This document shows, one piece after another, positions 1 through 54,353 of a stretch of 64,000 nucleotides of DNA. The translations under genes and the position numbers were made by a program. Under the pieces are notes generated by a model. That model worked only from the letters and a program-made list of their open reading frames with translations, was not told the origin of the DNA and did no database searches. The stretch is from Shigella phage ESh25. The stretch lies in the sequence record ON528735; one strand, 5' to 3'. Positions within the stretch are counted from its first letter, which is position 1. Each line of letters starts with the position of its first letter.

Positions 1-682
<682 letters not shown>

Positions 683-683
<1 letters not shown>

Positions 684-1408
684 TATAGTACCTTTAGTGT
701 ATTTTTAATTTTAGAAAAAAGTTCTTCAAGAGAACCATCGTTTGTAATTACTAAATCGCCATCACGAATTGGCAATCCAGCTTCTGTAATATGAGTATCA
801 TTGGATTTTTGACCAGGACGAACTACATGAATTACTGTAGCACCCATCGCCCTAGCCGCATCCATTTCATGATCTTGACGAGTATCAGGAACGATATAAT
901 AATCATAACCTGAGTTAAATTTATCAAGATAATCTAAAGCAAATAATTTTACCCAATACATGCGGTCGAAGTTATTAACAATCAAATCCGTACCTAGGGC
1001 TTGCATCAGACGACGGACTGACCATTGATCTTCAATATTATTTATAACGTCAATAATCTTGTTAAATGCTACGGAATTAACTGATTCTTGTCCTTCGTCA
1101 TCAAAAACAAACACACCCTTAATTGGGCTTTTACCATTAAGATAGCAAAATGCTTGTTCCATAATCGTGATTACTTCTAATTTAGTCAGATTTAAATTAG
1201 TCTCACGATCATAGTCAATTCCTTCAAACTCTTTACGAGTTAAGCAAGGATAGTCAGTGTTTGCTGCAAATACTCCCCATGCATAAGCCAATGCATCCTT
1301 AATAGGACCAGCAAGTTGGTATTTAACTGCAGAATAATTACTCATGATAAAATCTGCAGTAGTATCTTTTCCACTACGCTTTACACCACTTAAAAAGATT
1401 AGTTTCAT
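683..1408 (-). CDS. 1: deoxynucleoside monophosphate kinase (gp1)
   Basis: P-loop SGVKRSGKDT near N-terminus. Start placed at the internal Met (MKLIFLSG, 241 aa) because it has a GAGGAG SD and the track Met at 1447 lies upstream of the predicted middle promoter. Confidence 0.85.
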
Positions 1409-1433
1409 ATGTTTCTCCTCAAATTTAATTAAG

Positions 1434-1457
1434 ATTATAACACACAAAACTGAAGCA
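1434..1457 (-). promoter_or_regulatory. MotA-dependent middle promoter for gene 1 (MotA box TGCTTCA, 11-nt spacer, -10 TATAAT)
   Basis: Minus strand reads aaTGCTTCAgttttgtgtgTTATAATctt about 26 nt upstream of the gene 1 ATG; coordinates +/-2 nt. Confidence 0.5.
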
Positions 1458-1988
1458 TTAAACTTCTGCTATAATTTTTCCATCTTTTTCTACTTGAAAA
1501 TACGTATAAGGAATCGTTGCTGTACATACTAAAGCTGGGTCTGAATCTTCCGTGTAGCTAAATTCTACTTCAGACAGGTCAGAAACCCAAGGCTTATAAA
1601 AATTTATTGACATCACGATTTCAGTTTTACTATTATCTAAAATGTAAAGCGTAATGTATTCAGGACCTGTTTTTTGGGCAGTATTTTCGCCTGTAAGATA
1701 GTTACTAGTTCCTAGCATCCATTCATACATTCCTATCCACGACTTAAGTTCTTCATCAACTATAAATCTCACAATGAGTGGATCATACTCAAATGTAACA
1801 CCTGGACGTTGTGCTCGGCCCAGTCCAAACGGCCCAGTCACGGTATCAGTAACAGGTATTCTAATTCCTGGAATAGGAACTGACTGAGCGTTTAAAGTAA
1901 AAGCAGATGTAGTATTACTATGTGGTATTGATACTACAAAGTTAGTTGTATTTGCTTGGTTAAAAATTTGTTGCAGAGCTTGCGACAT
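1458..1988 (-). CDS. 3: gp3 tail completion / sheath stabiliser protein
   Basis: Track ORF is 203 aa; internal Met (MSQALQQIF...) gives 176 aa, preceded by GAGGAA SD; position between genes 1 and 2. Confidence 0.8.
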   Translation of the reverse strand: MSQALQQIFNQANTTNFVVSIPHSNTTSAFTLNAQSVPIPGIRIPVTDTVTGPFGLGRAQRPGVTFEYDPLIVRFIVDEELKSWIGMYEWMLGTSNYLTGENTAQKTGPEYITLYILDNSKTEIVMSINFYKPWVSDLSEVEFSYTEDSDPALVCTATIPYTYFQVEKDGKIIAEV

Positions 1989-2094
1989 ATATTCCTCATA
2001 ATGCTTTATAACTGTTGGTGGTATAATGGGTCTAAGTCCCTTCCATTCAATTCCATTTAGAACAAACAACAGAAAAGAATGGAAGATAATAGAA

Positions 2095-2919
2095 TTAAAT
2101 ATTTGACCAGACTTTGTTTGCAGAGAAACGTTTTCCTTTTGAAACGAACTGCTGAAGTGGCATCAACACAACGTTCGCCCAGTCTTTCGGGGCGATTTCA
2201 ACAAGGCTACCCATAATATTACCAGGTATATATGCCTTAATCATTTGGTCTGCACCCCTAAATCCTTTCACTTGACTCCAATCAATTTTTAATTTCGTTT
2301 TATTAGTAATAGTAGGTGTATTTGAATATTGCTTTAAAAGCTCTTCTAGGAATTGCTGACGAGCTTTAGGTGGAATATAGTGCAAGTTCAATCCGTACAT
2401 TAAATTATGCTTACCTAAACCAAGGTAAATTATTAAAGGAAATTTATCCCAGTAAGGAAGAGTTTCCTTGTGTTTAGCATCATAAGCAAAAGCATATATT
2501 CGTCCCGGCTGCGGGCGAACAACTTTATGTCCTTTTACTTGCTTAATAGTTTCAGCAAACCACTTTCTGGTTTTATTATTAATTGCTGCACCTTCATTAC
2601 GAATTTTATCACGCAATGTTTGCCTGAATGAATTTATCATAAGCAGTTGTCTTTCTTGCTTATTGAGTTTATTCATTGGTTTTGATTCAAGCTTTTGAAT
2701 CTTTTCAGCCGTTTTAATTCCTGAAGCATATTTTGACATTGCCGAAGTAAACGTAGAGTATTTAATTCCTCTTTCTTCAGCAAATTGCTTTCCTGACATT
2801 CCTTTTGCTTTGGCCTTTTTATATTCAAGACCTATCTGAATCCATTTCTTTTCGTTTAATGATTGCTTAACCTTTGGAACTTGGGGAGTGCTTTCATTAA
2901 TTATTTGAAAAATAGCCAT
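2095..2919 (-). CDS. 2: gp2 DNA end-protector protein
   Basis: 274-aa basic protein, T4 gp2 length and position; stop/start overlap with gene 4. Confidence 0.85.
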
Positions 2920-3371
2920 TATGCCCCCTTAAAGCCAAGAGCTCGTAATCCATCTTCTGTTAGAATTCTAAATTTTATTCCACGCTTTTCAGCTAAAGAT
3001 TGCGCTGCTTTCCATTTGTCAGTATTAACGGAATATGTATAAATTTCATTCATAAATCTTTTCTTCGCTGCAGTTGTTAGATGTGCTGGTTTAACTGGTG
3101 GTTGTGTTTCTTTTTTAGGTTTTATTTCAATAAAAAATTCTTGTCCAGAAGAATCTTTCATCCAAATATCCATGAAGTATCTACGTTTTTTCCCTTCTGC
3201 ATTACAAAAATAAGGAATTACTGCTGTTTCACTACCCCATGCAATAATTTCTGGATTTTTATCTAACCATTCAAAAAAGAATTTTTCCCAATTTGATCTA
3301 TACGTAATTTTTTTAGGGTCACCTCTATACTTTGATATATTTTTAGGAACCCATTTTCCAGAATATGCCAT
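2919..3371 (-). CDS. 4: gp4 head completion protein
   Basis: 150 aa, matches T4 gp4 length and position; GGAG SD upstream. Confidence 0.85.
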
Positions 3372-3382
3372 TGGATTCTCCT

Positions 3383-3390
3383 TATAAATA
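3383..3390 (+). promoter_or_regulatory. late promoter TATAAATA for gene 53
   Basis: Exact TATAAATA about 29 nt upstream of the gene 53 ATG. Confidence 0.7.
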
Positions 3391-3397
3391 GATAATA

Positions 3398-3405
3398 TAT
3401 TTATA
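3398..3405 (-). promoter_or_regulatory. late promoter TATAAATA (minus strand) for genes 4/2/3, divergent from the gene 53 promoter
   Basis: Plus strand reads tatttata, i.e. TATAAATA on the minus strand, about 27 nt upstream of the gene 4 ATG. Confidence 0.6.
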
Positions 3406-3418
3406 AACAGGAGGGCCC

Positions 3419-4009
3419 ATGCTCTTTACATTTTTTGATCCGATTGAATATGCGGCCAAAACGGTGAATAAAAACGCGCCGACTATTCCTATGACAGATA
3501 TTTTTAGAAACTATAAAGACTATTTTAAACGCGCTCTTGCGGGATACCGCTTACGTACTTATTATATTAAAGGTTCACCACGCCCGGAAGAATTAGCAAA
3601 TACTATATATGGAAATCCACAGTTGTATTGGGTTTTATTGATGTGTAATGATAATTATGATCCATATTATGGATGGATTACTTCACAAGAAGCAGCTTAT
3701 CAAGCATCTATACAAAAATACAAAAATGTAGGTGGAGACCAAATAGTATATCATGTAAATGAGAATGGTGAAAAATTTTATAATTTAATATCATACGATG
3801 ATAATCCATATGTTTGGTATGACAAAGGTGATAAAGCTAGAAAATATCCTCAATATGAAGGAGCACTTGCTGCGGTCGATACGTATGAAGCTGCTGTTCT
3901 TGAAAATGAAAAACTTCGTCAAATAAAAATAATAGCAAAATCAGACATTAATTCATTTATGAACGACCTTATACGTATAATGGAGAAATCTTATGGAAAT
4001 GATAAGTAA
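3419..4009 (+). CDS. 53: gp53 baseplate wedge protein
   Basis: 196 aa, T4 gp53 length; precedes gene 5; GGAGGG SD. Confidence 0.9.
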   Translation: MLFTFFDPIEYAAKTVNKNAPTIPMTDIFRNYKDYFKRALAGYRLRTYYIKGSPRPEELANTIYGNPQLYWVLLMCNDNYDPYYGWITSQEAAYQASIQKYKNVGGDQIVYHVNENGEKFYNLISYDDNPYVWYDKGDKARKYPQYEGALAAVDTYEAAVLENEKLRQIKIIAKSDINSFMNDLIRIMEKSYGNDK

Positions 4010-5720
4010 TAACCTTAATTGGTTTGTTGGTGTTGTTGAAGATAGAATGGACCCATTAAAATTAGGTCGTGTTCGTGTTCGTGTGGTTGGTCTACATCCA
4101 CCTCAAAGAGCACAAGGCGATGTAATGGGTATTCCAACTGAAAAATTACCATGGATGTCAGTTATTCAACCTATAACTTCTGCAGCGATGTCAGGAATTG
4201 GAGGTTCTGTTACAGGGCCAGTAGAAGGAACTAGAGTTTATGGTCATTTTTTAGACAAATGGAAAACTAATGGAATTGTCCTTGGCACGTATGGTGGAAT
4301 AGTTCGCGAAAAACCGAATAGACTTGAAGGATTTTCTGATCCAACTGGGCAATATCCTAGACGTTTAGGAAATGATACGAACGTATTAAACCAAGGCGGA
4401 GAAGTAGGATATGATTCCTCTTCTAACGTTATTCAAGATAGTAACTTAGACACCGCAATAAATCCCGATGATAGACCACTATCAGAGATTCCAACCGATG
4501 ATAATCCAAATATGTCAATGGCTGAAATGCTTCGCCGTGATGAAGGATTAAGATTAAAAGTTTATTGGGATACCGAAGGATATCCGACAATTGGTATTGG
4601 TCATCTTATCATGAAGCAGCCAGTTCGTGATATGGCTCAAATTAATAAAGTTTTATCAAAACAAGTTGGTCGTGAAATTACAGGAAATCCAGGTTCTATT
4701 ACAATGGAAGAGGCGACGACTTTATTTGAGCGTGATTTGGCTGATATGCAACGTGACATTAAATCACATTCTAAAGTAGGACCAGTCTGGCAAGCTGTCA
4801 ACCGTTCTCGTCAAATGGCGTTAGAAAATATGGCATTTCAGATGGGTGTTGGTGGTGTAGCTAAATTTAACACAATGTTAACTGCTATGTTAGCAGGAGA
4901 TTGGGAAAAAGCGTATAAAGCCGGTCGTGATTCATTGTGGTATCAACAAACAAAGGGTCGTGCATCCCGTGTTACCATGATTATTCTTACGGGAAATTTG
5001 GAATCATATGGTGTTGAAGTGAAAACACCAGCTAGGTCTTTATCTGCAATGGCTGCTACTGTAGCTAAATCTTCTGACCCTGCTGATCCTCCTATTCCAA
5101 ATGACTCGAGAATTTTATTCAAAGAACCAGTTTCTTCATATAAAGGTGAGTATCCTTATGTGCATACGATGGAAACTGAAAGTGGACATATCCAAGAATT
5201 TGATGATACCCCTGGGCAAGAACGATACAGATTAGTTCATCCAACTGGAACTTATGAAGAAGTATCACCGTCAGGAAGAAGAACAAGAAAAACTGTTGAT
5301 AATTTGTATGATATAACAAATGCTGATGGTAATTTTTTGGTAGCCGGTGATAAAAAGACTAACGTCGGTGGATCAGAAATTTATTACAACATGGATAATC
5401 GTTTACATCAAATCGATGGAAGCAATACAATATTTGTACGTGGCGATGAAACTAAGACGGTTGAAGGTAATGGAACTATCCTAGTTAAAGGTAATGTTAC
5501 TATTGTAGTTGAAGGTAATGCTGACATTACAGTTAAAGGAGATGCTACCACTTTAGTTGAAGGTAATCAAACTAATACAGTAAATGGAAATCTTTCTTGG
5601 AAAGTTGCTGGGACAGTTGATTGGGACGTTGGTGGTGATTGGACAGAAAAAATGGCATCTATGAGTTCTATTTCATCTGGTCAATACACAATTGATGGAT
5701 CGAGGATTGACATTGGCTAA
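3993..5720 (+). CDS. 5: gp5 baseplate hub / tail lysozyme (cell-puncturing device)
   Basis: 575 aa; central T4-lysozyme-like domain (YWDTEGYPTIGIGHLI); C-terminal VxGxxxxx beta-helix repeats. Confidence 0.95.
   Translation: MEMISNNLNWFVGVVEDRMDPLKLGRVRVRVVGLHPPQRAQGDVMGIPTEKLPWMSVIQPITSAAMSGIGGSVTGPVEGTRVYGHFLDKWKTNGIVLGTYGGIVREKPNRLEGFSDPTGQYPRRLGNDTNVLNQGGEVGYDSSSNVIQDSNLDTAINPDDRPLSEIPTDDNPNMSMAEMLRRDEGLRLKVYWDTEGYPTIGIGHLIMKQPVRDMAQINKVLSKQVGREITGNPGSITMEEATTLFERDLADMQRDIKSHSKVGPVWQAVNRSRQMALENMAFQMGVGGVAKFNTMLTAMLAGDWEKAYKAGRDSLWYQQTKGRASRVTMIILTGNLESYGVEVKTPARSLSAMAATVAKSSDPADPPIPNDSRILFKEPVSSYKGEYPYVHTMETESGHIQEFDDTPGQERYRLVHPTGTYEEVSPSGRRTRKTVDNLYDITNADGNFLVAGDKKTNVGGSEIYYNMDNRLHQIDGSNTIFVRGDETKTVEGNGTILVKGNVTIVVEGNADITVKGDATTLVEGNQTNTVNGNLSWKVAGTVDWDVGGDWTEKMASMSSISSGQYTIDGSRIDIG
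5425..5640 (+). repeat. 24-nt periodic coding repeat encoding the gp5 triple beta-helix (VEGNGTIL VKGNVTIV VEGNADIT VKGDATTL VEGNQTNT)
   Basis: Octapeptide periodicity visible in the translation and as repeated gttgaaggtaat / gttaaaggtaat units. Confidence 0.7.
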
Positions 5721-5754
5721 TATACTTCCAATGAGCGCTGATTTAGGAGAATCC

Positions 5755-6249
5755 ATGGAAGGTTCTTCTATCGACGTCACCTTTACCGCTCAATTAGAAA
5801 CAGGTGAAACGTTAGTATCTATAAATATAACTAGTTACGAAGAAACTCCTGGGGTTTTAGTAGAAGAAAATCGCTTATATGGAACATATGAATCTGTGTT
5901 TGGATTTGGAGATGACGCGTTGAAATATCGTTTAAGCGATGAATTTAAAACTGCTGCTTCATGGGAAGAACTTCCTACTGATTCTGATACTCAGTTGTAT
6001 TTATGGAAAGCTCCTCAAAACCTCCAGAAGACATTCACTTACGAAGTAACATTAATATATGACTACCAAGAACAAAGTGAATCTGGAGGTTCTGGCAGTA
6101 ATTCTAGGTCATCTTCTGATACTACTGAACCGACGGATCCTCCTGCTCCAGTAAGAAAAACTCTAGTTAAAAATTACACAAAAACTATAGTTGGAAATTG
6201 GAGTCGTTGGGCTAATAAATTAAGAAGCTATGTATATGAGAGGTCATAA
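5755..6249 (+). CDS. hypothetical protein (T4 5.1 position)
   Basis: Track ORF 5692-6249 overlaps the gene 5 3' end. Start chosen at the Met preceded by TAGGAG SD (MEGSSIDV...); alternatives are 5692 and 5731. Confidence 0.55.
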
Positions 6250-41849: not shown

Positions 41850-41857
41850 TATTTATA
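41850..41857 (-). promoter_or_regulatory. late promoter TATAAATA (minus strand) for genes 26/25
   Basis: Plus strand reads tatttata about 22 nt upstream of the gene 26 ATG; overlaps the divergent gene 51 promoter. Confidence 0.6.
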
Positions 41858-41861
41858 AATA
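41854..41861 (+). promoter_or_regulatory. late promoter TATAAATA for gene 51
   Basis: Exact TATAAATA 18 nt upstream of the gene 51 ATG, followed by AAGGAG SD. Confidence 0.65.
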
Positions 41862-48118: not shown

Positions 48119-48122
48119 CAAT

Positions 48123-48140
48123 GGGGACCTTTCGGTCCCC
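48123..48140. terminator. hairpin GGGGACC-tttc-GGTCCCC between gene 54 (+) and the alt-region genes (-)
   Basis: 7-bp GC stem between convergent transcription units, followed by atatttttat. Confidence 0.6.
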
Positions 48141-48146
48141 ATATTT

Positions 48147-48437
48147 TTATTTACGGAATGAAATAAAAGCAGCAACTGAAGCAACAGAGGTTTCTTCAAT
48201 ATAAACCTCAATTTTTACCGGAGCTTCTGACTCAAATTTACCTGTTACTACACCTTGGAAAATACTTTCAGTCTGTTCTGGCTTTGAAAAATTTTCAGAA
48301 GGAAAAATTCCGAACTTTTTATCGGTTCCGAAAATTTTAATAAATTCATCATAAACTGCTTCATTGAAAGCGTTATCAGCAGGAATAACGCCTTCAACTA
48401 CAAGTTCTTGACCTAAAAAGCGTAAAGAAGATTTCAT
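48147..48437 (-). CDS. hypothetical protein (T4 alt.-3 position)
   Basis: 96-aa ORF with GAGGAA SD, immediately downstream of early-promoter cassette copy A. Confidence 0.6.
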   Translation of the reverse strand: MKSSLRFLGQELVVEGVIPADNAFNEAVYDEFIKIFGTDKKFGIFPSENFSKPEQTESIFQGVVTGKFESEAPVKIEVYIEETSVASVAAFISFRK

Positions 48438-48445
48438 TTTGTGTT

Positions 48446-48498
48446 CCTCATGTTATGTCAGTAAGATTACTATAACACAACACGAGGGACTTGTAAAC
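48446..48498 (-). promoter_or_regulatory. early-promoter cassette, copy A (-35 GTTTAC, extended -10 TGnTATAGT, 5' UTR and SD)
   Basis: Minus strand reads GTTTACAAGTCCCTCGTGTTGTGTTATAGTAATCTTACTGACATAACATGAGG; 52 of 53 identical to copy B at 63770-63822. Confidence 0.6.
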
Positions 48499-50555
48499 TA
48501 CATTTTGAACTTTTTAGACATTCCGTTGATGTTAACCAAAGAAGCTAAGATTTGAGAAACTTCGCTTTCCTCTTCTTTTGATTCTTCTACAAGGAATTGA
48601 TTAAATCCAGCCATTGGACGAAATTCACCAGTTTCCATTAGATGGTCGCCATCATATACTGATTCTTCTAATTGTTCAGAAGGAGGAACGATTGTACCTT
48701 CGATTAGATACTTATTATAAGCAGTTTCTTTCATAAAGTAAGTACTTACTTTATTAATCTTCAGTAAAATTCCACGTGGTAGAATAACTTCAGCTTCTGA
48801 TGGAAATCCTGACAAATGACCTGGAACGATAACTTTAACTCGTTCAGCTCCTTTAATTACCATACCCACGCTAGTTTCTGCATCTTCATTAGCATATGTA
48901 GAATGACTACCCATATGCATCAAATCTTCTGCATCAACGGAACCTTCTCCTTCACCAGAAAATACTGCGCCGGAATCATCTAGAGCCATATAGTTTTTAC
49001 CATGCTCACCGAAGATATTTGGTTTAAGCGATGTGGATACGAAGTTCTTGAAATAGAACATTTTGTTTTCAATGTTATGACGCAAAGTTTTAAATGTAAC
49101 TTCTTGTCCACGGTAAAGTGTAGTTCCTGGAGGAAGAACTGAACCTTTAGCGAATGCAGAATCAAGCGTCTCGATGTGCTTAATAGCACGTTCCATATAT
49201 TCTTCACGGGTAGAATCCGGTTTACCTAAAAGGAACGAGTTCATTTCAACATATGAATCTGCGCAATAATCTTCAATTACATCAGACTCAGCCTGAGTCA
49301 ATCCTTTTGGAGTTACTTCAGTGCTTGCATATTCATACGCCTGAGCAGCGGATTCATCAATTAATTTATAAATTCCATTCATTACAAATTGAATAATAGC
49401 TGTCTTTTCATCTGGCGTAGCTTTAGAACCTTTAACTAAATCATTGATAATTTTCTTAATAACATCAAAACTATTAGAAATATTAATATCAGCAAGATCG
49501 CTTAAAATTTTATCAGTTTTATAATCAAAGAATTCTTTATTCTTTAAATATTCTTGAGAACCTTGATATGTTATATCGCTCTGCAACTTGATAGATGGAT
49601 CACGTAAACGTGCATGGGCTAATGCAATATGATTTCGGAAGCTTTCTAGTTCATAATCGTTAGATTTAAAACGAGAAGCACTTCTCATACCACCGATAGC
49701 TCCTTTGCTGAAGTTTGAACCAATCTGAATAACGCCAGAGTTCATTGGTCCTTCTGCTTTATATACCGGAACTTTAGATTCAAACTCTTGATATTTCTTA
49801 GCAGCGAAGCTATCACCCTGAAGTGAAGCATCAACAGTAGAATATTGAGCTTGTGCTGCTAATCGACGACTAATTTTAGTTTTCTGAATAACAGCTTGAT
49901 CCGTACGCTTATCATTTTCTAAAGCAATAGAAGCAGCAACTGCGACAGCTTTAGGAACAGCATTACCTGTTTTAACGTCTACATAAACATCACCGACTTT
50001 CGATTCAACTTTTGTGAATAACTCAGTTGAAATAGGAGGTACACCTGGAATGTCTTCTAAATTGGCATTTTTACGGTAAACCATAATATATGCATATTTC
50101 TTATCATAGTCCCAGATTTCCTTTAAAAGAACATATCGACCTGCTCCTTTAGTACGTACTAAACGGTCAGCAATAACTTGCATTTGACGAGCAGCGCCGT
50201 TTGTTTTACTTTTTAGTACGCGGAATAGGCATGCATCAATTTTATACTGTTTCATTGTTTGAAGAGCAGTATCAAAAACCGCATTAATGACACCAATTGG
50301 ATTTCCACCCAAGTTTTTAAGCTTAACTAACGATAATTTCTCGTTGACGCCTATCATTACGATATGCATCATTTTGTCGCCTGGCTTAACGTTTTTATTC
50401 GTATCACCGCCAGAGGTGTATGTACAAAATCGAAATCCAGGAAGAACGCTTTCTTCACCGGCTTGAATAGCAAAAATTTGAGGTATTTTATGCTTAGGAT
50501 TTAAGTTAACAACCGGCGCCGAAGCGCCGTCAAATAATTCTGTAATAAGTTCCAT
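48498..50555 (-). CDS. Alt-like ADP-ribosyltransferase paralogue
   Basis: 685 aa; N-terminal about 190 aa closely parallel the adjacent Alt (MELITELFD...KYAYI...STELFTKVESKVGDVY); C-terminal R-S-E triad (TLYRGQ, FVSTSL, SEAEVILPRG); divergent middle. Confidence 0.75.
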   Translation of the reverse strand: MELITELFDGASAPVVNLNPKHKIPQIFAIQAGEESVLPGFRFCTYTSGGDTNKNVKPGDKMMHIVMIGVNEKLSLVKLKNLGGNPIGVINAVFDTALQTMKQYKIDACLFRVLKSKTNGAARQMQVIADRLVRTKGAGRYVLLKEIWDYDKKYAYIMVYRKNANLEDIPGVPPISTELFTKVESKVGDVYVDVKTGNAVPKAVAVAASIALENDKRTDQAVIQKTKISRRLAAQAQYSTVDASLQGDSFAAKKYQEFESKVPVYKAEGPMNSGVIQIGSNFSKGAIGGMRSASRFKSNDYELESFRNHIALAHARLRDPSIKLQSDITYQGSQEYLKNKEFFDYKTDKILSDLADINISNSFDVIKKIINDLVKGSKATPDEKTAIIQFVMNGIYKLIDESAAQAYEYASTEVTPKGLTQAESDVIEDYCADSYVEMNSFLLGKPDSTREEYMERAIKHIETLDSAFAKGSVLPPGTTLYRGQEVTFKTLRHNIENKMFYFKNFVSTSLKPNIFGEHGKNYMALDDSGAVFSGEGEGSVDAEDLMHMGSHSTYANEDAETSVGMVIKGAERVKVIVPGHLSGFPSEAEVILPRGILLKINKVSTYFMKETAYNKYLIEGTIVPPSEQLEESVYDGDHLMETGEFRPMAGFNQFLVEESKEEESEVSQILASLVNINGMSKKFKM

Positions 50556-50558
50556 GAT

Positions 50559-52652
50559 TTATCCTTGAACGAACTTGTAAGGCATGTTTGTAATATCTAT
50601 GCAAGACGCAATAATTCCAAGAGATGATTCTACTTTCTGTTTAACGTTTGATGAAACAAATGATGCAAAGTCAACTCTGTCTTCTATTTCAATATCACCT
50701 GTCATTGCAACTACTTCACCGGTTTCCATTAAATGGTCTCCGTCATAGATTACCGATTCGGTGAGCTCTTCCGTGGTCATAACTTCAGCTTGAATGAGTT
50801 TTGTATTATTAGATGTTGTTCCGTCATTATTAGAAGCATCAGTTATTTTATTAACTTTGACCATCAATCCACGCGGTAGAATAACTTCAGCTTCTGTTGC
50901 TATTCCGAGACTTCCTGGATATACAACATTAACTTTATGAGCTCCATCAATTGCCCATCCTATTTGAACTTTAACGTATTCAGGATTTTCTTTATACGCT
51001 CTTATTTCGTTTGGATTAATAGTTATTCCTTCTTCATTTTTATCAACTGTTAATTCATTGCGAGCTTCTGGTTCTAAAAGACCAATACCAGCATGTGTGA
51101 TTCCAAAACGTCCAAAAATGATAGGAGTTAAAGAAGTAGATACAAAATTTCTGAAGTAGAACACTTTATTTTTAACTAACGCTTCATATATAGGAGCAGT
51201 CATACTTTGAGCACGATAAACTGTAATGCCTTCTGGTATACGGTCACCATTTTCAAAAGCTGAATCTAAGTTATTTATAGCAGATTCAATTTCTTTTTCA
51301 CTCATTACATCATATCGTTCTGGATTGTAGCGGCCTAAAAGAAGATTATTGATGTCAGTATATCCTGAACCGCAATATTCTCTAATGCCACGCTTTTGCG
51401 ATGGAGTATATTTAGAACCATCACGGGCAATAGTAATATCAATCATTGGACCTGCACCAATTCCGGAAAAGCTATAAATCATTCGTTTGAGGAATTTAGT
51501 TTTTGCTGCGTTCCAAGAATTTTTAGTTATTTCTTCCCAGACTTCATCTGGCTGCCCTTTACGAGTTTTATTATGTTTATCAAGCCAATTATCTTTATAT
51601 TCTTCAAAGAATTGATTAACAGCTGCTGCGTATTTCTCTAAACATTTTATTGAAGTAGTTGGTTCATTTTTAATCGCATTAAGAATTACATCTTTAATTT
51701 TTTCAGAAACTTCATTAACCTCACTTTTTGAAAAGAATTTATAGTCATAGTGAAGTTCATCTGCAGTTCCTTCGGCAATAATTTTTGCTGCCTTAGTTTT
51801 AGAAGCTAATGAATTAATTCCAAGCTTCATTTCTTCTGCTTCGGGAATTAAAGGAGCGGTAGCAGGTTTATTAAAATTAGCTGCTGTAGATTCATACTTC
51901 TGGAATAATTCACTTTCAAATCTAGAAGATTCCAATGATTGACTTTGCGCAATTGCTCTACGGGAAATTTTAACTTTAACGATTACAGCTTGGTCAGAAC
52001 GTTTATCATTTTCTTGTGCAATAGATGCTGCAATTGCCTCATTTTTAGTTACTTGAGCTCCAGTATCTTTATTGATATAAACATCACCAACCTTCGATTC
52101 AACTTTAGTAAAGAGCTCGGTACTAATTTCAGGAACTCCTGGAATGTCTTCTAATGATACGTTTTTGCGATGTATAAGAATATATGCATACTTTTTATCG
52201 TAATCCCAGAGTTCCTTAAGAAGGACGTATCTGCCACCTGAACGACTACGGATAAGTCTATCAGCAATAACTTGAATTTGTCGAGCTTGGCCAGCAGTTT
52301 TAGACTTAAGAATACGAAGCATACAAGCATCAATTTTATATTGACGCATTGTTTGCATTGCAACAGTAAAAACTGAATTGATATAATTAATTGGGCTTGG
52401 ACCAAGACCTTTTAATTTAGCAATTGAACCTTTAGCAGTTAATGTAAAAGGAACAATATGCATCATTTTATCGCCCATCTTTAAATCACGATTAGTATCA
52501 CCTCCAGATGTATAGGTACATAAACGAAAGCCTGGTTGTTCAATTGCATCATCAACATGAACTGAAAAAATTTGCGGTATTTTCTTCTTTGGATTTAAGT
52601 TTGTAATCGGAAGAGTAGTATCTTCGTCAAATAATTCTGTAATAAGTTCCAT
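50559..52652 (-). CDS. alt: Alt ADP-ribosyltransferase (capsid-packaged ART)
   Basis: Start taken at the second Met (MELITELFD...); R-S-E triad (TVYRAQ, FVSTSL, TEAEVILPRG); minus-strand TATAAATA upstream; position adjacent to the ligase region as in T4. Confidence 0.8.
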   Translation of the reverse strand: MELITELFDEDTTLPITNLNPKKKIPQIFSVHVDDAIEQPGFRLCTYTSGGDTNRDLKMGDKMMHIVPFTLTAKGSIAKLKGLGPSPINYINSVFTVAMQTMRQYKIDACMLRILKSKTAGQARQIQVIADRLIRSRSGGRYVLLKELWDYDKKYAYILIHRKNVSLEDIPGVPEISTELFTKVESKVGDVYINKDTGAQVTKNEAIAASIAQENDKRSDQAVIVKVKISRRAIAQSQSLESSRFESELFQKYESTAANFNKPATAPLIPEAEEMKLGINSLASKTKAAKIIAEGTADELHYDYKFFSKSEVNEVSEKIKDVILNAIKNEPTTSIKCLEKYAAAVNQFFEEYKDNWLDKHNKTRKGQPDEVWEEITKNSWNAAKTKFLKRMIYSFSGIGAGPMIDITIARDGSKYTPSQKRGIREYCGSGYTDINNLLLGRYNPERYDVMSEKEIESAINNLDSAFENGDRIPEGITVYRAQSMTAPIYEALVKNKVFYFRNFVSTSLTPIIFGRFGITHAGIGLLEPEARNELTVDKNEEGITINPNEIRAYKENPEYVKVQIGWAIDGAHKVNVVYPGSLGIATEAEVILPRGLMVKVNKITDASNNDGTTSNNTKLIQAEVMTTEELTESVIYDGDHLMETGEVVAMTGDIEIEDRVDFASFVSSNVKQKVESSLGIIASCIDITNMPYKFVQG

Positions 52653-52675
52653 CATAGCCTCTCTAGTGTTTATTC

Positions 52676-52683
52676 TATTTATA
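52676..52683 (-). promoter_or_regulatory. late promoter TATAAATA (minus strand) for alt and its paralogue
   Basis: Plus strand reads tatttata about 24 nt upstream of the alt ATG; preceded on the minus strand by a hairpin and T-rich stretch. Confidence 0.6.
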
Positions 52684-52690
52684 AAATTAA

Positions 52691-52704
52691 AGGCCCGAAG
52701 GCCT
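52691..52704 (-). terminator. hairpin AGGCC-cgaa-GGCCT between the ligase-side early unit and alt
   Basis: Hairpin immediately after the 62-aa ORF stop, followed on the minus strand by a T-rich run. Confidence 0.5.
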
Positions 52705-52893
52705 TTAGTAATCTAGTGGTAAGAGAGTACGATATATTTCAAACTTTGGTCCTTTTTCATAGGCATCAAATGTTTCTGTAAATTTATTATAAGCGTATGC
52801 ATCTACAAATTCGAGAATGACTTGTGATACAGAAGTAGAAACATCTCCACCTTCTTTTTGAGCAATGACAATTGTTTCTAAGTAAGCTTTCAT
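52705..52893 (-). CDS. hypothetical small protein between ligase and alt
   Basis: 62-aa ORF whose start overlaps the gene 30 stop; assignment to a named T4 ORF uncertain. Confidence 0.45.
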   Translation of the reverse strand: MKAYLETIVIAQKEGGDVSTSVSQVILEFVDAYAYNKFTETFDAYEKGPKFEIYRTLLPLDY

Positions 52894-54353
52894 AAACCAG
52901 TTACCTCATGAAAATCACCAAATACATCCTCGAATGTATTAGCTTTAGTTTTATCTTCACGTAAACGAATCGCAATCGGAAGAAATAATTTAACGTAATC
53001 AGTGCGGCCATCAGATTTTAACCAACCGTTGCATTCGCACTCTAGAATTTTTCCAATATAATAATTTTGGTTTTCCATAATGCGAGTACGGTCAAGTTCA
53101 TGTGATTTTACGCCGGCTTTGTCTTTTAAGCCTGAACCAGCATTTACCTTAATTTTTCCACACTCTGACTCAAGAATAAATCCACCCGCTTTAGTAGGGT
53201 CTTTACGGTGAGGATAAATTCCTACAATTTTTAAATCAACATCAATTACTTCTTTAAATTTATAAAGATTTTTTGAACGAGCATTTTCCCATAATCCATC
53301 GATATTTTTGAGAATAATACCTTCAAGACCTTGGTCAATATACTTTTTATAAATTACCTTAGCTTCATCTAGGTTATTTACTACCTGGTTTTCAATTAAA
53401 ATTACTTTATCATAACCTGATGTCATTTGTTCTAGTTTAGAAAAACGTACATCATATTTCAAACGAAATGCAGGAAGACCGTATATTTCTACCAACGGGA
53501 CATAATCCCAAACCTGAAACTTCATGCATTGAGCTTCTTTTTCAGAAATGGTTCCTTTTAAGGATTTATTGGCGATTCCATTAGAAGTAGTACGAGATTC
53601 CGCTACTTCGGCGAATTCTTTAGCTTTACTAATTTCAGGATAAGCATTAAAAAGAAAATCTAGGCCTTCTGGTTCCTTTTTAACTTGCTCATGGTATACC
53701 AATTCGCCATCAATTAACACACCTTCTGGATGAATCTGGCGGGCTTCAGCAGTCATTTTGATTAACTCTTCCTTAAGAAGATCTAATCCTAGATATTCAT
53801 TACCAGCTCGTGATAAAAGACGAACATCATCTAATTCATCGCCTCGGACTTCAGCAAAACACCGGGCTCCATCTGCTTTTAACTGCGCAAAGGCTGGAAA
53901 CTTGATATTCTTACTAATGCCCTTTTCATCATAAGAACTTGCCAGCATTTGAGGTTGTTCAGGAATTAAACCTGGCCAAACTTTGTTTGCAATAGATACT
54001 GAAGCACCGCATTCAAGGTCTCGCATCATCACTCGACGCAAAACTTCAACATCATCCTTTTTACCATCAGTGATATATCCAGTTAATTCCTCAATTGCAG
54101 CATTTCCAGTCAATTTCCGAGTAGCTAACGTGAATTCAATGAAATCAAGCATATCGGTAATGGTCAGCATTCCAAAACTCTGGGTAGCAATACCAGGTTT
54201 AGGCCATTTCTTGATATAATACTGTAACCCACGAGAATAAGTCAGACGATATACTCGTTTAAGCAATTCATTATCTTTATTCTTTTCAAGAATTGCTTGC
54301 TTCTGCTTAGTTGATCCAATAGATGCTATTTCATTCAGAATTTTAAGAATCAT
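52890..54353 (-). CDS. 30: ATP-dependent DNA ligase gp30
   Basis: 487 aa; adenylation motif KADGARC; begins MILKILNEIASIGSTKQKQAILEKNKDNELLKRVYRLTY. Confidence 0.95.
   Translation of the reverse strand: MILKILNEIASIGSTKQKQAILEKNKDNELLKRVYRLTYSRGLQYYIKKWPKPGIATQSFGMLTITDMLDFIEFTLATRKLTGNAAIEELTGYITDGKKDDVEVLRRVMMRDLECGASVSIANKVWPGLIPEQPQMLASSYDEKGISKNIKFPAFAQLKADGARCFAEVRGDELDDVRLLSRAGNEYLGLDLLKEELIKMTAEARQIHPEGVLIDGELVYHEQVKKEPEGLDFLFNAYPEISKAKEFAEVAESRTTSNGIANKSLKGTISEKEAQCMKFQVWDYVPLVEIYGLPAFRLKYDVRFSKLEQMTSGYDKVILIENQVVNNLDEAKVIYKKYIDQGLEGIILKNIDGLWENARSKNLYKFKEVIDVDLKIVGIYPHRKDPTKAGGFILESECGKIKVNAGSGLKDKAGVKSHELDRTRIMENQNYYIGKILECECNGWLKSDGRTDYVKLFLPIAIRLREDKTKANTFEDVFGDFHEVTGL

Follow-up and report, generated by a model that had tools for sequence, protein, structure and literature searches.

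Tandem Alt-family ADP-ribosyltransferase genes in Shigella phage ESh25 and the remnant of the second gene in T4

The alt locus of Shigella phage ESh25 (sequence record ON528735), studied here in a stretch of 64,000 nucleotides (nt) referred to below as the window, carries a tandem pair of Alt-family ADP-ribosyltransferase genes: alt and, directly behind it on the minus strand, alt.-2, which encodes a full-length paralogue of Alt (Alt.-2, or Alt2). On balance, the locus probably represents the ancestral T-even arrangement of two paralogues, each of which would be packaged in the phage head, trimmed by the protease gp21 and injected, so as to modify partly different host targets. The pair as such is already known: both genes are named and annotated in related phages, belong to Pfam and PHROG families and have been noted in the literature.

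Paralogy of Alt and Alt.-2

An earlier note, made from the letters of the window, had described tandem Alt-like ADP-ribosyltransferase genes, and most of its description stands. The coordinates place two large open reading frames (ORFs) of 685 and 697 amino acids head-to-tail on the minus strand, with 3 nt between the alt stop codon (50559-50561) and the alt.-2 ATG (50555-50553). Both proteins begin with MELITELFD and thus share an I-T-E site at residue 6. The closely similar first 190 or so amino acids of that description correspond to 55-82% identity over residues 1-220, the strongly different central regions to 15-25% over residues 240-420, and the C-terminal catalytic triad (YRAQ/YRGQ, STS and EAEVILPRG) is present in both. 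In the ADP-ribosyltransferase core the identity is 30-48%, falling to 5-12% in an insert at about residues 524-560, while over their whole length the two proteins are 41% identical (BLASTP, E value 1e-159). In the DNA, the pair can be recognised as a diverged tandem repeat with a period of 2,091-2,097 nt.

Family assignment agrees with this alignment. PHROG 802, "Alt-like RNA polymerase ADP-ribosyltransferase", covers residues 1-696 of Alt (E value 4e-273) and residues 1-685 of Alt.-2 (E value 9e-256), and the Pfam family PF03496 (ADPrib_exo_Tox) scores 129 bits on Alt and 71.2 bits on Alt.-2, with a gathering score of 23.4 bits. The family PF26846 (Tevenvirinae_ADPRT) has no match in the local copy of Pfam and is listed in the precomputed annotation of a 99%-identical cluster (P0001) and of one tandem pair (L006). 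The 4.6-kb region as a whole is 97-98% identical to many Tequatrovirus genomes, with 281 records covering at least 80% of it.

Catalytic domain and selection

Alt.-2 has an intact ADP-ribosyltransferase fold of the C3/VIP2 type. The arginine motif is YRAQ at residue 479 in Alt and YRGQ at residue 481 in Alt.-2, whereas EAEVILPRG begins at residue 587 in both. The alignment with T4 Alt, ModA and ModB that the earlier note had called for leaves neither ORF without catalytic residues: the Arg, the Ser of S-T-S and both Glu of E-x-E (alignment columns R81, S106, E188 and E190) are invariant in window Alt, T4 Alt, Alt.-2, ModA and ModB. Among enzymes with an R-S-E core, arginine specificity is associated with E-x-E rather than with the Q-x-E that C3 has. 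The E-x-E motif, together with a similarity to Vis, iota Ia and CdtA, points to NAD-dependent arginine ADP-ribosylation of host proteins as the putative activity of Alt.-2. By sequence, the catalytic domain of Alt aligns partially with CdtA and iota Ia, over the helical stretch as far as the YR motif and less strongly over the strand with ExE, and a sequence comparison of full-length Alt.-2 with solved structures gave no match in the PDB. The substitution E577A has been reported to inactivate Alt (PMC11404850). By our own assignment, the residue is the second Glu of the ExE motif (E-M-E), numbered from the upstream Met that is also found in T4; this Glu is kept in both proteins.

Alt.-2 is under strong purifying selection. 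Among window alt.-2 and its orthologues in RB14, T2 and T6, the ratio of nonsynonymous to synonymous divergence (dN/dS) is 0.04-0.06, at a synonymous divergence (dS) of 0.08-0.20. The constraint is comparable to that on alt, whose dN/dS among its orthologues is 0.02-0.09.

N-terminal module and predicted processing sites

Of all parts of the two paralogues, the N-terminal alpha/beta module is the most strongly conserved, yet its synonymous sites are saturated (dS about 1.5). Its similarity therefore reflects long-term selection and not recent gene conversion, which is rejected as its source for this genome, dS being saturated there too. A role in head-core targeting and packaging is proposed here for the module, a shared function such as core targeting being the simplest reading of its conservation.

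T4 Alt is a protein of the prohead core, present in about 40 copies and ejected with the DNA (PMC9026906). It is cut by gp21 at ITE-6 and LTE-619, giving a product of 68.2 kDa by mass spectrometry (PMC5694885), and the computed mass of T4 Alt residues 7-619 agrees with this value. At the positions aligned to the two T4 sites, gp21 sites are predicted at ITE-6 and LTE-632 in window Alt and at ITE-6 and LEE-631 in Alt.-2, for predicted mature masses of 70.1 kDa and 69.1 kDa, respectively. These counterparts of the C-terminal T4 site, like the purifying selection on alt.-2, add support beyond what the earlier note contained. Behind the second site both proteins carry an acidic C-terminal tail (isoelectric point (pI) 4.2-4.6) with a conserved YDGDHLMETGE motif, and in Alt.-2 this tail is predicted to be a propeptide that is removed at LEE-631. 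With these features, Alt.-2 would be packaged and injected as T4 Alt is.

Divergent centre, insert and allelic mosaicism

Structure models of the divergent centres, another check that the earlier note had proposed, are all-helical in both proteins, and the full models share one architecture: an N-terminal alpha/beta domain (about residues 15-195), linker helices, the all-helical centre (about 250-410), the catalytic domain and a disordered tail. Helix order and spacing in the two centres are similar, as judged by comparing the secondary-structure strings of the models. This layout, together with the gapped alignment at low identity, suggests that the centres are homologous but very diverged and have not been exchanged for unrelated domains. 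In the comparison of the two paralogues, dN and dS are roughly equal for the centre as well as for the STS-ExE insert. A word-indexed search with the Alt.-2 centre (residues 230-420) returned only a 112-residue fragment identical to the query, an uninformative outcome probably due to the index, and an exhaustive search of 1.84 billion representatives with the same region gave one match, an Alt-like protein (E value 9e-4), and none outside the Alt family. Since the helical centre and the STS-ExE insert are the only strongly diverged parts, Alt.-2 most likely recognises targets that differ in part from those of Alt.

The centre of Alt itself varies between alleles. Window Alt has 99.4% amino acid identity to T6 Alt and 70% to T4 Alt, and the comparison with T4 Alt shows 100% identity over residues 1-220 against 11-35% over residues 260-400, from which it follows that alt itself is mosaic, its central modules differing between alleles. 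Clustering of 114 family members at 70% identity separates at least seven groups of centres but essentially a single group of N-termini. Among close relatives, moreover, the type of Alt seems to vary independently of whether Alt2 is present: phage Bas35 (WilhelmHis, L011) has an intact Alt2 next to a 683-residue Alt (P0069) that is T4-type by score and length, and Bas36 (Paracelsus, L009) has an intact Alt2 next to a 683-residue Alt whose T4 type is taken from its length only. Two metagenomic proteins from Logan assemblies (P0005 and P0006) combine a centre and catalytic domain 99% identical to window Alt.-2 with N-terminal modules 94-99.6% identical to Alt; these hybrids could stem from recombination between the tandem paralogues or from chimeric assembly. 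The pair is retained in a more divergent contig, at 64% identity for Alt and 75% for Alt2, and Escherichia phage MX01 (Dhakavirus; L007, locus 1-6124) has three tandem Alt-like genes, ORF196, ORF195 and ORF194, the copy adjoining alt.-3 being 48% identical to window Alt.-2.

The T4 remnant and the distribution of alt.-2

In T4, alt is followed by two small ORFs, alt.-1 (NP_049810) and alt.-2 (NP_049809), which align to the first 348 nt of window alt.-2 at 329 of the 348 positions and have the same flanks. A 1-nt deletion in an A-run splits the T4 reading frame, and the sequence then jumps to the last 12 nt of the gene. The intact gene contains two copies of the 9-bp direct repeat CTAAAAAGT, as against a single copy in T4, exactly at the junction, and this marks the T4 state as the outcome of a 1,699-bp deletion between short direct repeats. 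The deletion takes away codons 117 to 680, approximately, and with them the whole catalytic domain. Read from this comparison, T4 alt.-1 and alt.-2 are evidently the deletion remnant of a full-length paralogue, and the T4 state is derived. In the T4 record the two ORFs are put down to a duplication of the beginning of alt, but comparison with the intact gene shows them to be a deletion remnant. The earlier note had asked whether the second gene corresponds to an annotated T4 ORF; it is the full-length form of T4 alt.-1 plus alt.-2.

The deletion allele was scored in 499 related records with a 154-nt probe across the T4 junction, for which a contiguous match denotes the deletion and a match in two pieces the intact gene. 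The intact pattern is found in about 408 of these records, and tblastn finds full-length Alt.-2 orthologues of at least 90% identity in about 401 phage records. Those of RB14, T6 and T2 have 685 amino acids and are 98.0-98.8% identical to window Alt.-2. The two-gene layout is widespread, and the novelty of the pair that the earlier note implied is not upheld, as the second gene is annotated as alt.-2 or Alt2 in T2, T6, RB and BASEL phages. It is named alt.-2 in the records of RB14 and RB51; the T6 record notes "alt.-2 ... also similar to alt", T2 having the same layout; and in the BASEL phages Bas35, 36, 39 and 40 it is annotated as "ADP-ribosyltransferase Alt2". RefSeq names both genes "Alt-like RNA polymerase ADP-ribosyltransferase". 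Moreover, Nolan et al. (2006; PMC1524935) had already counted T4 alt.-1/alt.-2 and a full-length duplicate in phage 44RR as duplicated paralogues of alt.

Comparison with known systems

Window alt is the orthologue of the gene for T4 Alt (gpAlt, NP_049811), the head-packaged arginine mono-ADP-ribosyltransferase, with which it shares its flanks (alt.1 and gene 30 upstream), the late promoter and the terminator hairpin. Alt.-2 has the domain order, the R-S-ExE residues, both gp21 motifs and the acidic C-terminal tail in common with T4 Alt, but differs from it in being 41% identical (to either Alt) and in its diverged centre and catalytic-domain insert. The alt.-2 or Alt2 of T2, T6, RB14, RB51 and Bas35/36/39/40 is the same gene, located 3 nt after alt and before alt.-3, without substantive difference; window alt.-2 adds a further allele to a gene that had been annotated before.

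T4 ModA and ModB have the same R-S-ExE core and belong to the same Alt/VIP2 clade (PMC5512222). However, they are proteins of about 200 amino acids without the N-terminal module, helical centre and propeptides, are encoded by early genes elsewhere and are not virion proteins. Alt and Alt.-2, with 697 and 685 amino acids, three domains and a late-promoter context, do not fit this type and are about 15% identical to it, in the catalytic core only. Compared to the C3/VIP2/iota-type toxins (Vis, CPILE-a, Certhrax, C3bot, VIP2, CdtA and Ia), Alt.-2 adds a 410-residue N-terminal portion and the insert between STS and ExE. Whereas these toxins use a translocon, delivery of Alt.-2 would be via the phage head.

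T4 Alt is reported to help evade the Mokosh type I defence, and the "Alt of Bas37" to be unable to substitute for it (HIDEN-SEQ preprint, 10.1101/2025.11.20.689424). This non-complementing protein (bas37_0033) may be either Alt or Alt2. As T4 Alt and the Bas37 protein are not interchangeable against Mokosh, variation in the Alt family has functional consequences.

Organisation and proposed expression of the locus

The locus is a Tequatrovirus (T-even) segment, with the baseplate genes 48 and 54 on the plus strand and, in order of transcription on the minus strand, gene 30 ligase, alt.1, alt, alt.-2 and alt.-3 (Table 1). The pair is flanked by gene 30/alt.1 on one side and alt.-3/gene 54 on the other, runs opposite in strand to the baseplate genes and follows a late promoter, as expected for genes of the Alt-like family. 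The alt ORF formally spans 50559-52655 (698 amino acids) and begins one codon earlier with MMELITE. The second ATG, at 52652, is the likely start, since a GAGAGG Shine-Dalgarno sequence (52663-52658) precedes it by 5 nt and the T4 annotation makes the same choice; this gives the 697-residue protein. No plausible plus-strand ORF was found inside alt and alt.-2, where the longest encodes 81 amino acids, and no Rfam family was found between 47000 and 54500.

Table 1. Features of the alt locus, by position in the window
Feature	Position	Strand	Remarks
Gene 30 ligase	52890-54353	-	
alt.1	52705-52893	-	62 amino acids; Pfam PF24647 "Phage blade protein" match, E value 2e-29
Terminator-like hairpin TAAAGGCC-TTCG-GGCCTTTA with T-run	52688-52707	-	identical in T4, T2, T6, RB14
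T4-type late promoter consensus TATAAATA, upstream of alt	52676-52683	-	kept in T4, T2, T6, RB14; activity inferred from consensus alone
alt	50559-52652	-	697-residue Alt ADP-ribosyltransferase, T6-type allele
Centre of Alt	51423-51935	-	
Second TATAAATA, within alt coding sequence (codons A-I-N-N)	51272-51279	-	717 nt upstream of alt.-2 ATG
Alt catalytic residues	R480 (51213-51215), STS 505-507, E587 (50892-50894), E589 (50886-50888)	-	
AAGGA ribosome-binding site of alt.-2	50562-50566	-	overlaps last codon(s) of alt; same junction in T4
alt.-2 (Alt2)	48498-50555	-	685-residue Alt paralogue
Alt.-2 N-terminal alpha/beta module, residues 1-235 (putative PF26846)	49851..50555	-	55-82% identical to Alt
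CTAAAAAGT, 9-bp direct repeat, upstream copy	50208-50216	-	5' breakpoint of T4-type deletion
Alt.-2 central all-helical region, residues 240-415	49311..49838	-	15-25% identical to Alt
Alt.-2 ADP-ribosyltransferase domain, residues 416-625	48681..49310	-	divergent insert at about 516-565 between STS and ExE
Alt.-2 catalytic residues	R482 (49110-49112), STS 507-509, E587 (48795-48797), E589 (48789-48791)	-	
Alt.-2 acidic C-terminal tail, residues 632-685, pI 4.6	48501..48662	-	predicted propeptide cut at LEE-631; disordered in model
CTAAAAAGT, downstream copy	48509-48517	-	3' breakpoint of T4-type deletion
alt.-3	48147-48437	-	96 amino acids, Pfam DUF5498; downstream of alt.-2
Hairpin ATGGGGACC-TTTC-GGTCCCCAT, perfect 9-bp stem	48121-48142	both, terminator-like	between convergent gene 54 and alt.-3

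The hairpin at the upstream end includes the stop codon of alt.1 (52705-52707), reaches just past alt.1 and directly precedes the late promoter. The earlier note had placed the pair under a single late promoter. The TATAAATA match upstream of alt is indeed present, but a second one lies on the minus strand within alt, so that a single promoter is not established. T2, T6 and RB14 also have this internal match, which the T4 allele of alt lacks. It could act as a late promoter inside the gene or have arisen by chance in coding sequence; because the site is coding, its conservation proves nothing either way. The overlap of the AAGGA site with the end of alt, together with the 3-nt gap, suggests translational coupling of alt.-2 to alt. 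No terminator-like site was found on the minus strand between alt, alt.-2 and alt.-3, and as alt.-3 is on the same strand it probably shares the late transcript of alt and alt.-2, the probable 3' end of which is the hairpin between alt.-3 and gene 54.

alt.-3 also has a sigma-70-like promoter of its own, TTTACA-17-TATAGT with a TG extension (48497..48469), in the 60-nt gap after alt.-2. In T4, Alt.-3 is extended at its C-terminus in mutants that escape the CmdTAC defence (PMC11618068). Over the whole window, 21 matches to TATAAATA occur where 9.7 are expected by chance, and two of them overlap on opposite strands at 41850-41861 (41850-41857 on the minus and 41854-41861 on the plus strand).

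Proposed role of Alt.-2 and alternative explanations

In the sequence of events proposed here, a late transcript would run from the TATAAATA promoter upstream of alt through alt, alt.-2 and alt.-3 to the hairpin before gene 54, with alt.-2 being translated by coupling across the 3-nt gap. The precursors of about 76-78 kDa would enter the prohead core by means of their shared N-terminal module and terminal propeptides, and gp21 would trim each after ITE-6 and after the L-x-E at about residue 631/632 to mature enzymes of about 69-70 kDa. Mature Alt and Alt2 would then be ejected into the host with the DNA, where each, as an E-x-E type enzyme specific for arginine, would mono-ADP-ribosylate host proteins, the centre and insert setting the partly distinct targets of each enzyme.

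Several points weigh against this proposal. The L/I-x-E motifs are short and occur 7-10 times per protein, so that the two aligned positions that are kept suggest cleavage in a supportive but not decisive manner. The internal TATAAATA match could serve alt.-2 as its own promoter. T4 Alt already modifies many host proteins, and overlapping or redundant targets of Alt2 are possible. The T4-type deletion allele is carried by 91 of the 499 related records (about 18%), T4 and environmental isolates included, which indicates that Alt2 is dispensable, at least in some settings. Finally, no virion proteomics, enzymology or genetics on Alt2 itself was found in the literature searched.

One alternative is that Alt2 is a redundant dosage or back-up copy, which would be packaged and injected like Alt and act on the same principal targets, such as the RNA polymerase alpha subunit and other Alt substrates. 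Architecture, catalytic motifs and cleavage motifs are common to both proteins, the loss of the gene from T4 and the other deletion-bearing records has left viability intact, and T4 Alt is itself known to be non-essential and to have many substrates (PMC9026906, PMC5512222). We nevertheless regard redundancy as rather unlikely. After an old duplication, with dS saturated, identity has dropped to 15-25% in the centre and 5-12% in the insert, while each paralogue remains tightly conserved among its own orthologues, a pattern typical of subfunctionalised paralogues; in addition, Alt variants are reported to be non-interchangeable against Mokosh (10.1101/2025.11.20.689424). Less likely still is that Alt2 is made late without being delivered, as an active enzyme or a structural component of the head core that acts in the producing cell or in head assembly only. 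It is true that the position behind a late promoter demonstrates late synthesis only, that the literature searched yielded no virion proteomics of Alt2, and that Alt, besides being an enzyme, is also described as part of the core (PMC11404850). Yet the N-terminal module, ITE-6, the L-x-E at about residue 631 and the acidic tail, which are features that accompany the packaging and processing of Alt, are all kept under selection in Alt2, and its fully conserved catalytic residues speak against a purely structural role.

T4 and about 90 other records carry only a frameshifted and deleted remnant, and the way in which alt.-1 and alt.-2 are annotated in T4 could be taken to mean that alt.-2 is a decaying duplicate and a pseudogene in the making. 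For the window gene this is highly improbable: it is an intact ORF of 685 codons with catalytic residues and fold preserved, its orthologues are 97-99% identical at the protein level, and both 9-bp repeats are present in the intact gene, the T4 state being derived. Decay of window alt.-2 is accordingly rejected, the intact catalytic residues and the dN/dS of 0.04-0.06 effectively refuting it. The proposal of two injected enzymes with partly different targets is retained as the preferred reading.

Implications for T-even phages

A broader extension of this proposal is conceivable, although we hold it as tentative and more doubtful than the proposal itself. Alt and Alt2, and likewise the triple set of Dhakavirus, may be parts of a modular arsenal of injected effectors, in which a constant packaging module and propeptides carry fast-diverging, reassorting specificity modules, and each allele neutralises a different host defence or takeover target; Alt2 would then be an unrecognised anti-defence enzyme. 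Examples of reassortment are the T4- and T6-type Alt found with an intact or a deleted Alt2, and the Alt2 bodies with Alt-type N-termini. If this is true, the model phage T4 lacks one whole injected effector.

As a sequence feature, alt.-2 is an annotated and ordinary member of the Alt family. Almost all knowledge of phage-injected ADP-ribosyltransferases comes from T4, which has lost alt.-2, while roughly four fifths of the related phages, T2 and T6 included, hold an intact and strongly conserved second enzyme. Should the targets of Alt2 differ from those of Alt, some of the first chemistry by which T-even phages take over the host or counter its defences would have been missed so far.

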